The notes under the pieces were generated by a model that was given only the letters and a program-made list of their open reading frames with translations, was not told the DNA's origin and made no database searches. Position numbers and translations under genes: made by a program. From a virus (lineage: Duplodnaviria > Heunggongvirae > Uroviricota > Caudoviricetes), in the IMG/VR virus record IMGVR_UViG_2526164693_000019, positions 1-18,180 of that record: a stretch of 18,180 bases of DNA. One strand, written 5' to 3'. Positions 3,010 to 3,917 of the stretch are shown piece by piece. Within the stretch, counting starts at the first letter, position 1; every line of letters begins with the position of its first letter.

Positions 3010-3297
3010 TCAGATAGAGAAGGGAAATTGTCGCCGAGAATGTGTCACGCTTACAATCTCAATGCTTGAAGCAGCTACTCTGTACAGGATTATGTAGTTA
3101 GGGTGGGTCACGATCTCTCTCAATCCAGAAACCCGTTCGCTTGGTGGATATAAGTACGGATGCTCAGATAGAGGTAATACCGATGTTTCAATGCGTATTT
3201 TTAGTCTACGTGCTGCCGGTGGGTTCTCCTTGGCGATGTAAGTTATGATCTGGCGCAAATCATCGCGAGCAGACGGTAGCCATAAAATGGGTAACAT
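3010..3297 (-). CDS. parE: RelE/ParE-family type II toxin (95 aa)
   Basis: Product MLPILWLPSARDDLRQIITYIAKENPPAARRL...GLREIV..HPNYIILYRV...IEIVSVTHSRRQF has the ParE/RelE-like pattern. Its start overlaps the antitoxin stop by 1 nt (TAATG). This is the classic antitoxin-then-toxin order. Confidence 0.75.
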   Translation of the reverse strand: MLPILWLPSARDDLRQIITYIAKENPPAARRLKIRIETSVLPLSEHPYLYPPSERVSGLREIVTHPNYIILYRVAASSIEIVSVTHSRRQFPFSI

Positions 3298-3488
3298 TAC
3301 TCGCTCTTGTTAGTTACAGCAATTTGAGCAATAAGATTTTCCATTTCAGCCATTACCTCGTCATGTGGAATTGCGGGGCGAGTGTCTGCAAGGCTTGACG
3401 TTACTTTAGTGCGCAACCATTCGTTGTAACTGTTTTCTTGTTCGGTAGTTTCGAATTCTGAAACTATCGGAGAAAGGGCTGTACCCAT
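3297..3488 (-). CDS. paaA: Small antitoxin (63 aa), PaaA-like partner of ParE
   Basis: 63-aa acidic protein immediately upstream of, and translationally coupled to, the ParE-like toxin. Length and position match recalled PaaA antitoxins of the three-component paaR-paaA-parE systems in E. coli O157:H7 prophages. Assigned from recall, not a search. Confidence 0.6.
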   Translation of the reverse strand: MGTALSPIVSEFETTEQENSYNEWLRTKVTSSLADTRPAIPHDEVMAEMENLIAQIAVTNKSE

Positions 3489-3515
3489 GGCATAACTCCT
3501 CTTCTTGTACTGTGG

Positions 3516-3917
3516 TCACGCCCGGCGGCTTTTTTGTGCCGCCAGCCACCTAGCAATGGTTTCTTCCATTGATTTTTTCTTGTCTTTGATTTCTTGAAGC
3601 ATTTTTTCTTGGTCTTCCTCAGGAAACGCACTAAAAGCTTGGAGCAGTTCGCGTTGGCGAGGACCAATTTTCATCGTGTCAGGGGTGAAAATTTGCTCAC
3701 ACTCTTCAGGAGGCAATAAAAACCAATGCAATGGATGCCCTGAAACCTCAACCAGTTTATCCAAACTTGAGGCTTTAGGTGTAGCCTTACCGCTGACCCA
3801 TTGTTGAACAGTTTGTTGTGTCACACCAATTCTACGGGCAAGCTCAGCCTGGCTCCATCCAGTTTCCTGAAGAAGCTTGCTGATTCTGTACATAGATACT
3901 TCTAGGGCGCTCATCAT
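3516..3917 (-). CDS. HTH (XRE-family) repressor, DicA/PaaR-like; candidate prophage immunity repressor and TA regulator
   Basis: N-terminal helix-turn-helix ISKLLQETGWSQAELARRIGVTQQTVQQWVSGKATP. Divergent from the Cro-like gene across a palindromic operator. Same strand as, and 27 bp upstream of, the antitoxin-toxin pair. No obvious Shine-Dalgarno, so possibly leaderless. Confidence 0.7.
   Translation of the reverse strand: MMSALEVSMYRISKLLQETGWSQAELARRIGVTQQTVQQWVSGKATPKASSLDKLVEVSGHPLHWFLLPPEECEQIFTPDTMKIGPRQRELLQAFSAFPEEDQEKMLQEIKDKKKSMEETIARWLAAQKSRRA

Follow-up and report, generated by a model that had tools for sequence, protein, structure and literature searches.

A paaR1-paaA1-parE1 module as the probable repressor operon of a CP-933M-type lambdoid immunity region

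Background

The closest described system to the locus analysed here is the paaR2-paaA2-parE2 operon of prophage CP-933P (Sp12) of Escherichia coli O157:H7, which has been studied by Jurenas et al. 2021 (PMC8630535) and Prolic-Kalinsek et al. 2023 (PMC9986795), with structures available as PDB entries 3zbe, 5cw7 and 8bt1. EMSA, footprinting and reporter experiments demonstrated that PaaR2 binds OR and represses both PR933P and PL933P (PMC8630535). EMSA and footprints on the OR repeats were obtained with PaaR2 and also with the Cro-like protein YdaS, and these two proteins form a bistable switch with the CII-like YdaT (PMC8630535), which activates PRE933P (PMC8630535, PMC9986795). Plasmid stabilisation is also among the published experiments on this paralogue (PMC8630535, PMC9986795). 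The start of the paaR2 transcript was mapped to the ATG and the N terminus of the protein was sequenced (PMC8630535); cotranscription of paaR, paaA and parE has been shown experimentally for the CP-933P-type paralogue only.

The toxin-antitoxin (TA) pair of this sister locus is described as one that "replaces rexA and rexB" (PMC8630535, PMC9986795). Single-cell work found ParE2 activity to be undetectable in either transcriptional state, and its authors propose that the pair serves in addiction and in stabilising the immunity region against recombination (PMC8630535). The antitoxin PaaA2 is reportedly degraded by ClpAP and ClpXP. A second O157:H7 homologue has been placed on prophage CP-933M (PMC8630535) and, according to the review PMC4803016, which cites Hallez 2010, PaaA1 and PaaA2 each neutralise their own toxin only. 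A search of the literature found no experimental work on PaaR1 itself.

Results

Gene content of the module

The window, by which we mean the whole 18,180 nt stretch of IMG/VR record IMGVR_UViG_2526164693_000019 that was analysed, contains a regulator-antitoxin-toxin unit on its minus strand. A preliminary description of this DNA had proposed such a single unit, and the open reading frame list and Pfam searches place every component where it was said to lie. The paaR1-type regulator gene (3516-3917) encodes 133 aa with a match to HTH_3 above the curated cut-off (E=2.3e-12); it is followed by a paaA1-type antitoxin gene (3297-3488; 63 aa), matching PF21217 PaaA2 with E=5.6e-19 and 68.3 bits against a cut-off of 27, and a parE1-type toxin gene (3010-3297; 95 aa), matching PF05016 ParE_toxin with E=2.9e-17 and 63.5 bits against a cut-off of 23. 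No second domain, DNA-binding or otherwise, was found in PaaA1 by the Pfam search.

Alignment with PaaR2, PaaA2, ParE2 and DicA had been suggested as a check on the family assignment. ParE1 is 67% identical to ParE2 (PDB 5cw7) over 92 aa and PaaA1 is 70% identical to PaaA2 (PDB 3zbe), whilst PaaR1 and PaaR2 share 43% identity over the C-terminal 95 aa, rising to 60% over the last 50, with diverged N-terminal HTH regions; the DicA profile is matched below its cut-off. With a toxin and an antitoxin of the appropriate families and a PaaR homologue upstream in the same orientation, the assignment to the paaR-paaA-parE family stands. PaaR1 itself comprises a Cro/CI-type HTH at approximately residues 10-67 and a DicA/PaaR-type C-terminal domain, with no Pfam match to the Peptidase_S24 autocleavage domain.

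The genes are closely packed: the 27 nt gap between paaR1 and paaA1 contains a GAGGAG Shine-Dalgarno sequence, and the stop codon of paaA1 overlaps the parE1 start as TAATG, a -1 nt junction. The transcript is predicted to end at an intrinsic terminator (2969-2991, minus strand), a TCCCTC-TTTC-GAGGGA hairpin with a 6 bp stem and a 4 nt loop, preceding a run of seven T residues. The hairpin (2991-2976) starts 18 nt past the toxin stop codon. Though its fold is weak (-9.9 kcal/mol, z=-1.3), the terminator-like structure recognised in the preliminary description is present, and a hairpin and T-run occur at the same place in every related locus compared. Given the tight junctions and the one terminator after parE1, the layout is compatible with cotranscription of paaR1, paaA1 and parE1.

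Relationship to the O157:H7 loci

Window positions 2780-4320 are 100% identical at the DNA level to positions 1254557-1256097 of the E. coli O157:H7 EDL933 chromosome, and to many other O157 genomes. O157:H7 genomes carry exactly two paaR-paaA-parE loci; in strain TR01, one is of the window type (H1) and the other encodes the exact ParE2 sequence found in PDB. The paaR2 locus was located through the first 61 nt of paaR2, rebuilt from published primers, as a BLAST search with PaaA2 and ParE2 back-translated onto the window's codons found its best O157 match at the window-type locus. Judged by its sequence, the module is hence the already described paaR1-paaA1-parE1 (Hallez et al. 2010, Mol Microbiol 76:719), of the CP-933M type; the prophage name follows from the statement in PMC8630535 in combination with the presence of two loci per genome.

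The surrounding prophage differs. CP-933M matches the window only over positions 1-8476 (99.2% identity), with the remainder diverging, so the same immunity cassette sits in a different mosaic prophage. The entire window was not found in any one complete E. coli genome.

Putative operators and promoters

The unit lies between two palindromes, which the preliminary description had treated as two copies of the same 39 bp sequence. This holds true of the arms, but the spacers differ in length and sequence: the right palindrome (3954-3992) is 39 bp long, with 15 nt arms that are 100% complementary around a 9 nt spacer, whilst the left (2919-2958) is 40 bp long and has the same arms, with one mismatch, around a 10 nt spacer. 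As explanations for these palindromes, terminators and cruciform sites were both rejected, since the sequences are A/T-rich and overlap outward-facing promoter elements. A further single dyad at 3929-3943 had previously been overlooked.

The palindromes resolve into 15 bp dyads, such that there are three putative operators at OR and two at OL. At the latter, sites a (2919-2933, ACAATAAAAAACTGT) and b (2944-2958, ACAGTTTTTAATTGT) are the left and right arms of the left palindrome respectively. Within the 108 bp intergenic region between paaR1 and ydaS, the OR3-like dyad (3929-3943, ACAGGTAAATACTGT) abuts the -10 element of the putative PRM promoter; the OR2-like dyad (3954-3968, ACAATAAAAAACTGT) is the left arm of the right palindrome, centred at about -44 from the paaR1 ATG; and the OR1-like dyad (3978-3992, ACAGTTTTTTATTGT), its right arm, falls inside the spacer of the putative PR promoter. 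The OL pair lies beyond the terminator. The OR dyads are spaced 25 and 24 bp apart, a distance that matches the layout of lambda OR. Across the 18,180 bp, the motif ACARK-N5-AYTGT occurs only at the five dyads (nine strand matches against 0.29 expected, a number equalled in none of 200 shuffles); as it was defined post hoc from these same sites, the informative part of this result is that there is no further copy.

Candidate promoters could be placed around the operators by sequence and by analogy with CP-933P. A putative PL-type promoter (2914-2944, minus strand) consists of a TTGACA -35 element (reverse complement of 2939-2944), a 19 nt spacer and a TAGATT -10 element (reverse complement of 2914-2919). 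It is placed like the experimentally active PL933P, and we infer that it reads leftward into ydfA, ydfB, DicF and dicB. The putative PRM-type -10 element, TAAAAT (3924-3929, minus strand), is separated from the downstream paaR1 ATG by 6 nt; this mirrors the GATAAT-6 nt-ATG arrangement at paaR2, from which we infer that the paaR1 mRNA is probably leaderless. A putative PR-type promoter for ydaS and ydaT (3968-3997, plus strand) is a weak match, proposed by analogy with PR933P, with a TTGATT -35 element (3968-3973), an 18 nt spacer and a TAGGCT -10 element (3992-3997). None of the presumed PRM, PR and PL promoters was called by a simple sigma-70 consensus scan, in the case of PL because its spacer is 19 nt long. 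When folded as RNA, the conserved 141 nt leader that extends from OL to ydfA was no more stable than shuffled sequences (z=+1.3).

On the other side of OR, the divergent Cro-like gene that had been noted earlier is of the ydaS type (4026-4298, plus strand), encoding a 90 aa putative Cro analogue matching Pfam YdaS above the cut-off (E=8e-10). It is followed by a gene for a 141 aa CII analogue of the ydaT type (4282-4707, plus strand; Pfam YdaT, E=1.2e-9), the product of which matches PDB 8bt1 and 3c4r with E values of about 1e-82 and is 86% identical to the YdaT of CP-933P. At the junction of the two genes is a putative YdaT operator of the OM type (4275-4292, TTGATTCATGAAAATCAA), which would mark a PRE-type region; it is an exact match to the published 5'-TTGATTN6AATCAA-3' (PMC9986795), and is found at the same junction in CP-933P.

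PaaR1 as a candidate prophage repressor

These features together suggest that positions 2914-4707 constitute a lambdoid immunity region of the CP-933M type, in which the three-gene unit is the leftward, 'lysogenic' operon and PaaR1 is the analogue of CI, a reading to which we assign a probability of roughly 85%. A repeated operator lies between divergent repressor and cro genes, with a second operator set beyond the operon; the regulator occupies the cI slot and a CII-type site is present. Phage Tritos has the same backbone, running from exo, dicB, DicF and ydfA to ydaT and the replication genes, with an annotated CI in this slot and no TA; an alignment of its CI with PaaR1 spans 112 aa at 27% identity (E=1e-11). 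In Tritos and in other phages, flanks that match those of the cassette at 94-96% identity enclose annotated CI and Cro genes. Furthermore, residues 2-67 of PaaR1 share 45% identity (E=6e-20) with the HTH of the CI of an Stx2a phage, a protein that also carries Peptidase_S24 (E=3.5e-17). That the TA regulator might be the prophage repressor had been suggested in the preliminary description, and is supported by analogy: repression of PR and PL by PaaR2 has been demonstrated at the sister locus, and the architecture here is the same.

On this model, an oligomer of PaaR1 would bind the three 15 bp dyads at OR and the two at OL (ACA-R-K N5 A-Y-TGT), and so shut off both PR, which serves ydaS and ydaT as well as the replication genes, and PL, which serves ydfA, ydfB, DicF, dicB and exo. 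PaaR1 would also autoregulate its own leaderless PRM-type transcript, along which paaA1 and parE1 would be carried, so that antitoxin and toxin would be made whenever the prophage is repressed. The YdaS-type protein may compete for the PaaR1 operators as a Cro analogue, whilst YdaT, as the analogue of CII, would bind TTGATT-N6-AATCAA at 4275-4292 and activate a PRE-type promoter reading back into the operon. As PaaR1 lacks the S24 autocleavage domain, it would not be expected to respond directly to RecA. PaaA1 is likely to neutralise ParE1 through direct binding, and loss of the cassette would leave the stable ParE1 unopposed; for this reason the TA pair is proposed to stabilise the immunity region as an addiction module.

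Operators co-vary with repressor and Cro

The sample available for comparing immunity types is small, comprising five loci that represent four immunity types sharing the TA pair (window/L004, L002, L003 and CP-933P/L005). Across the five, the operators co-vary with the HTH domain of the repressor and with the Cro gene. Cognate OL and OR always had the longest word in common, at 17, 12, 14, 10 and 12 nt, against at most 10 nt for non-cognate combinations. The N-terminal part of the repressor is only 15-18% identical between distant types, or 58% for L003, and the Cro genes are either not alignable or 42-50% identical. By contrast, the last 50 residues of the repressor (48-78% identity) and the TA proteins (65-90%) are kept across types.

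A conserved core of paaA, parE and the repressor C-terminal domain may hence have received at least four exchanged sets of specificity determinants, each consisting of HTH, Cro, OL and OR. If so, the TA pair could conceivably guard the immunity cassette by punishing its loss or replacement, and would then be an immunity-linked abortive infection or anti-recombination device as opposed to a passive passenger. The trigger would be recombination with a heteroimmune phage, or the shutting down of PRM by the antirepressor of a superinfecting phage. We consider this combined proposal unlikely. One TA core joined to several swapped repressor specificities provides a natural test system for the published anti-recombination hypothesis.

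Alternative interpretations

A different role for the TA pair would be as a Rex-like exclusion or abortive infection device, expressed from the lysogenic promoter, in which disturbance of PaaR1 or PaaA1 by a superinfecting phage would free ParE1 and kill the cell ahead of phage multiplication. Abortive infection is known for some type II TA systems and, as PaaA2 is degraded by ClpAP and ClpXP, a halt in antitoxin synthesis could free the toxin. The rex-equivalent position noted in the preliminary description is also stated in print, for the paralogue (PMC9986795). However, the proteins are unrelated in sequence to RexA and RexB, and neither PaaA1 nor ParE1 matches any of 5027 PADLOC models, amongst which PaaR1 has generic HTH matches only. 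For the paralogue, toxin activity was seen in neither transcriptional state, and addiction or anti-recombination is the role preferred by the authors; the literature yielded no phage-challenge data. The earlier suggestion of superinfection exclusion is supported neither by this analysis nor by the literature consulted, and we regard such a function as quite improbable.

PaaR1 could alternatively be a dedicated regulator of the TA operon, equivalent to the DNA-binding half of an antitoxin that has been split in two, with immunity under the control of another repressor. This accords with the first description of PaaR, by Hallez 2010, as the transcriptional regulator of the TA operon, as related in PMC8630535 and PMC4803016; the 'split antitoxin' view is raised in the discussion of PMC8630535, and PaaA does lack a DNA-binding domain. 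However, there is no further repressor-like gene between OL and the replication genes, and a TA autoregulator would have no need of the dyad repeated at OL, over the TTGACA -35 element facing kil and dicB. The presence of the Tritos CI in the same slot without a TA, the 45% identity between the HTH domains of PaaR1 and the S24-bearing Stx2a phage CI, and the repression of PR and PL by PaaR2 in CP-933P likewise argue for PaaR1 as the CI analogue, and make a purely TA-dedicated regulator very unlikely.

That the palindromes are sites for the Cro-like protein only, or serve a structural purpose, for example as hairpin terminators or as recombination hot spots at the borders of the mosaic cassette, seems scarcely credible: mosaic breakpoints with other phages do occur near the left palindrome (window 2780-2903), and, as repressor and Cro both vary together with the sites, covariation does not by itself name the binder, but the sequences are A/T-rich and hence poor RNA hairpins, overlap outward-facing -35 and spacer elements at both loci, include a third single dyad adjoining the paaR1 -10 element, share the 24-25 bp spacing of lambda OR, and have equivalents in the CP-933P repeats that are footprinted by both PaaR2 and YdaS.

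Comparison with known immunity regions

The module is an ordinary and already known one: it was described in 2010, and the repressor role and rex-like position were shown or stated for the sister locus in 2021 and 2023. To this the present analysis adds the operator map, the leaderless-type geometry, the exact YdaT site and the covariation of operators across five loci. The predicted operator map for the PaaR1 immunity type is concrete enough to be used in the design of gel-shift and reporter experiments. The module does not differ from that of CP-933M in gene order, gene sizes, families or any other respect.

As in lambda, a leftward repressor operon with cargo genes ends before OL and PL, a tripartite OR with approximately 24 bp spacing lies between divergent PRM and PR promoters, and the cro/cII junction carries a site for a CII-type activator. 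The repressor mRNA of lambda is leaderless, a property that is predicted for the window. The regions differ in that the cargo in the window is a type II TA pair without sequence homology to Rex, that PaaR1, like PaaR2 and DicA, has no S24 domain, and that only two dyads were found at the window's OL.

PaaR1 matches the DicA (Qin) profile PRK09706 over residues 11-130 (E=8e-14), but scores 51.5 bits against the NCBIfam cut-off of 101, and so is DicA-like and not a DicA equivalog. The annotated CI proteins of Gifsy-1, Gifsy-2, SPN3UB and FSL SP-016 are 28-31% identical to PaaR1 over about 100 aa. DicA, the Gifsy-1 and Gifsy-2 CI proteins, the Tritos CI and PaaR1 are all around 130-140 aa long, with an HTH and a helical C-terminal domain and without a peptidase; Tritos differs in that no TA lies downstream of its repressor.

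CP-933P has the same order of regulator, antitoxin and toxin, a terminator and OL, an OR intergenic region of around 100 bp, divergent ydaS and ydaT genes, an identical YdaT operator and the same geometry between -10 element and ATG at paaR2. ParE (67%), PaaA (70%), YdaT (86%) and the last 50 residues of PaaR (60%) are similar, whilst the HTH of PaaR2 is unrelated in sequence (18%), with a Pfam HTH match in PaaR1 and none in PaaR2, and its YdaS is not alignable with that of the window. As the C-terminal part of PaaR alone is common to the two and YdaS cannot be aligned, the sequence, number and order of occupancy of the operators are not transferable from CP-933P. PMC4803016 also reports no cross-neutralisation between the antitoxins of the two loci. 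The operators of CP-933P are repeats, with the consensus GTTTAGTAA, contained in 18 bp palindromes, whereas those of the window are 15 bp ACA..TGT dyads; hence the two prophages are expected to be heteroimmune.

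Organisation of the paaR1-paaA1-parE1 operon

Three adjacent genes on the minus strand encode a 133 aa regulator (3516-3917; Pfam HTH_3, E=2.3e-12), a 63 aa antitoxin (3297-3488; Pfam PaaA2 'stability determinant', E=5.6e-19) and a 95 aa toxin (3010-3297; Pfam ParE_toxin, E=2.9e-17), all scoring above the curated cut-offs. A gap of 27 nt, containing a GAGGAG ribosome-binding site, separates the regulator stop from the antitoxin start, and the antitoxin stop and toxin start, as read from the sequence, overlap in TAATG. Eighteen nucleotides past the toxin stop, at 2991-2976, the minus strand has a 6 bp hairpin followed by T7, with a modest folding energy (-9.9 kcal/mol). 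Divergent from this operon is a Cro-like YdaS-family gene (4026-4298, plus strand), overlapped by a YdaT-family gene (4282-4707, plus strand), both assigned through Pfam. Hence the open reading frames, Pfam matches and terminator reproduce the arrangement of the preliminary description.

The names 'YdaS_toxin' and 'YdaT_toxin' (Pfam) and 'toxin YdaT family protein' (RefSeq) are historical, and misleading for this gene pair (4026-4707 in the window, 18247-18928 in locus L001); YdaS and YdaT have been argued to be regulators, not a toxin-antitoxin pair (PMC8630535). RefSeq names the antitoxin 'relB'. Between ydaT and the replication gene, a 163 aa ORF on the opposite strand (4914-5405, minus) has no Pfam match; a shorter version in EDL933 is the 'ECs1072 family phage-associated protein' of RefSeq.

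Relationship to E. coli O157:H7 prophages

Positions 2780-4320 are 100% identical to 1254557-1256097 of the E. coli O157:H7 EDL933 chromosome, and likewise to many other O157 genomes, which together with the Pfam matches confirms a three-component paaR-paaA-parE system. At least 80% of this segment is found in 509 of 5426 complete E. coli genomes, and some form of the unit in 833. The alignments proposed beforehand give 67% identity between the toxin and ParE2 (PDB 5cw7) and 70% between the antitoxin and PaaA2 (PDB 3zbe), both crystallised, with the regulator PaaR2-like in its C-terminal part only; the pair are therefore relatives of paaR2-paaA2-parE2, not that system itself. O157:H7 genomes match the unit in two places. 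The other locus, taken from strain TR01 and located with the paaR2 start rebuilt from published primers, encodes the exact PDB ParE2 sequence, hence the window type is its paralogue, the paaR1-paaA1-parE1 of the literature, located on cryptic prophage CP-933M (PMC8630535; PMC3141249). According to a passage of PMC4803016 citing Hallez 2010, PaaA1 neutralises ParE1 alone and PaaA2 neutralises ParE2 alone.

The left part of the window (1-8476) is 99.2% identical to CP-933M of EDL933, whilst the right 9.7 kb (8477-18180) diverges, and none of the 5426 complete genomes has at least 80% of the window in one place. As the window is not CP-933M as a whole, the immunity cassette sits in a different mosaic prophage, one without a representative as such among these genomes.

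The replication genes are separated from the Q region by a cluster (10283-13782) of a C5 cytosine DNA methylase (10283-11434, plus; Pfam 2.6e-61, PADLOC MTase_II 2e-98), a Methyltransf_35 putative O-methyltransferase (11402-12394, minus; 2e-89) and a HATPase_c_3 protein (12391-13782, minus; 2.9e-9), the latter two having no match in PADLOC; the three genes may form an islet for modification or defence. Past the Q-like gene (15048-15722) are three tRNA genes (15862-16108, plus), then the sRNA STnc100 (17517-17722, plus; 207.7 bits) and the 'anti-stx2' sRNA AsxR (17724-17776, minus; 88.1 bits). This order is that of the late region in an Stx-type lambdoid prophage, the window ending before a possible stx gene.

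Operators and putative promoters

The operon had been described as lying between two copies of one 39 bp palindrome. The right palindrome (3954-3992) has perfect 15 nt arms and a 9 nt spacer; the left (2919-2958) repeats these arms with one mismatch, but around a spacer of 10 nt and different sequence, so it is the arms that are shared, not the spacers. Each arm is an imperfect 15 bp dyad, ACA(A/G)(T/G)-N5-A(C/T)TGT, a fifth copy of which stands singly at 3929-3943. OR, the 108 bp intergenic region between paaR1 and ydaS, thus contains three dyads, with centres 25 and 24 bp apart, and OL, beyond parE1, contains two; the spacing at OR resembles the layout of lambda OR. The motif matches at these five positions only (nine strand matches against 0.29 expected, equalled in none of 200 shuffles); as it was defined from the same five sites, the informative part is that no further copy occurs elsewhere in the 18,180 bp.

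Within the inter-site spacers of both OL and OR is an outward-facing -35-like hexamer, TTGACA towards ydfA/DicF/dicB and TTGATT towards ydaS, each read from the sequence as part of a putative promoter. Beside the third OR dyad, TAAAAT lies exactly 6 nt ahead of the regulator ATG, the same spacing as in paaR2 (GATAAT-6-ATG). We infer promoters around OL and OR from these features, a simple consensus scan having called none of those presumed in the immunity region. Positions 4275-4292 are an exact YdaT operator, placed at the gene junction that also carries it in CP-933P, and the window YdaT is 86% identical to the characterised protein.

The stretch of approximately 130 nt that separates OL from the start of ydfA (2772-2903) is 94-96% conserved in heteroimmune phages and prophages, its end, GGGGCGGGGTGGGT, coinciding with the mosaic breakpoint; the corresponding RNA, a putative PL leader, gives no better fold than shuffled sequences. 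The antisense sRNA DicF (1285-1336, minus; Rfam 76.9 bits) lies between ydfA/ydfB (2447-2771) and dicB, inside the leftward operon, and so would be controlled by the putative PL/OL.

A model for immunity

To the operon anatomy, family memberships, operator copies, YdaT site and O157-locus identity, which are established at the level of sequence, we would add a mechanism in which PaaR1 occupies the five dyads, shutting down PR and PL and controlling its own leaderless transcript, which also encodes PaaA1 and ParE1. The YdaS-type protein would compete with PaaR1 in the manner of Cro, YdaT would activate a leftward PRE-type promoter, and the immunity cassette would have the PaaA1-ParE1 pair as its addiction module. 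We put the probability of this package, taken jointly, at about 85%, each of three alternatives being much less likely. The first, a Rex-like exclusion role for the pair, follows the earlier placement of the module in the position equivalent to rex, with possible exclusion of superinfecting phage; however, neither PaaA1 nor ParE1 has a match in PADLOC and phage-challenge data were not found, leaving that proposal improbable.

PaaR1 has a DicA-like NCBIfam match over residues 11-130, almost its full length (E=8e-14), although this falls under the equivalog cut-off; the alignment with DicA proposed beforehand hence holds in extent but not at that level. Over residues 2-67 PaaR1 shares 45% identity with the HTH domain of a Stx2a-phage CI (E=6e-20), and over approximately 100 residues it is 28-31% identical to annotated CI repressors of Gifsy-1, Gifsy-2 and further phages. 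The Stx2a-phage CI has a Peptidase_S24 domain, which PaaR1 lacks, so PaaR1 is a short DicA/PaaR-type repressor, not cleavable in a RecA-dependent manner. Gifsy-phage repressors of this short kind are inactivated by antirepressors.

That PaaR1 serves only to regulate the toxin-antitoxin pair is very unlikely, phage Tritos being one argument against it. Tritos shares the surrounding backbone (exo, ydfD, dicB, DicF, a ydaT-like gene and replication), yet carries an annotated CI (139 aa) and Cro in the paaR1 slot and no toxin-antitoxin genes; its CI is 27% identical to PaaR1 along a 112-residue alignment (E=1e-11). Matches to phage genomes, at 94-96%, are confined to the flanks, 2780-2903 on the one hand and the side of ydaT on the other. 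For the YdaT homologue of Tritos, the annotation reads 'Rha family transcriptional regulator'.

Immunity types sharing the toxin-antitoxin pair

The window was compared with four related E. coli chromosomal loci: L004 and L003, with regulators 97% and 65% identical to that of the window, L002, with a 166 aa regulator, and L005, of CP-933P type, in which only the C-terminal part is comparable. Conserved across immunity types are the toxin (65-88%), antitoxin (70-90%), YdaT (83-87%) and, in the regulator, the final 50 residues (48-78%). The regulator N-terminal part diverges to approximately 15-18% between distant types (58% for L003) and the Cro-like genes are 24-50% identical or cannot be aligned, and OL and OR vary in sequence together with both. 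In all five loci the longest word shared by OL and OR is that of the cognate pair (17, 12, 14, 10 and 12 nt, against at most 10 nt for non-cognate pairs). With the conserved toxin-antitoxin segment separating OL from the HTH/OR/cro block, this consistent matching, in a small sample, argues for functional coupling, the binder being the regulator, YdaS or both. The least probable of the three alternatives is one in which the palindromes do not serve as repressor sites.

Hence paaA-parE and the C-terminal 50 residues of the regulator are common to at least four immunity types differing in HTH, Cro and operators. The only phage record with this kind of ParE is Escherichia phage Evi (LR597642.1, 24332-25192), which has a RAE2-type cassette in which the parE ORF is present but unannotated.

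Comparison with CP-933P

In CP-933P, PaaR2 occupies the cI slot (Jurenas et al. 2021, PMC8630535). There the paaR2 mRNA is leaderless, its start having been mapped and the PaaR2 N-terminus sequenced; repeats in the 97 bp intergenic region are footprinted by PaaR2 and YdaS, which regulate PRM, PR and a PL next to a second operator set past parE2, and YdaT activates a PRE-type promoter (PMC8630535). The locus is bistable and stabilises an unstable plasmid, whilst ParE2 activity was not detectable in either state (PMC8630535). The YdaT site is 5'-TTGATTN6AATCAA-3' at the ydaS/ydaT junction (Prolic-Kalinsek et al. 2023, PMC9986795). The earlier suggestion that the toxin-antitoxin regulator is itself the prophage repressor is thus published for CP-933P, and the YdaT site, -10 to ATG geometry, OL/OR covariation, Tritos slot and resemblance of PaaR1 to phage CI repressors support the same logic here. 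The module is accordingly a rediscovery of a system already described, with a model already published.
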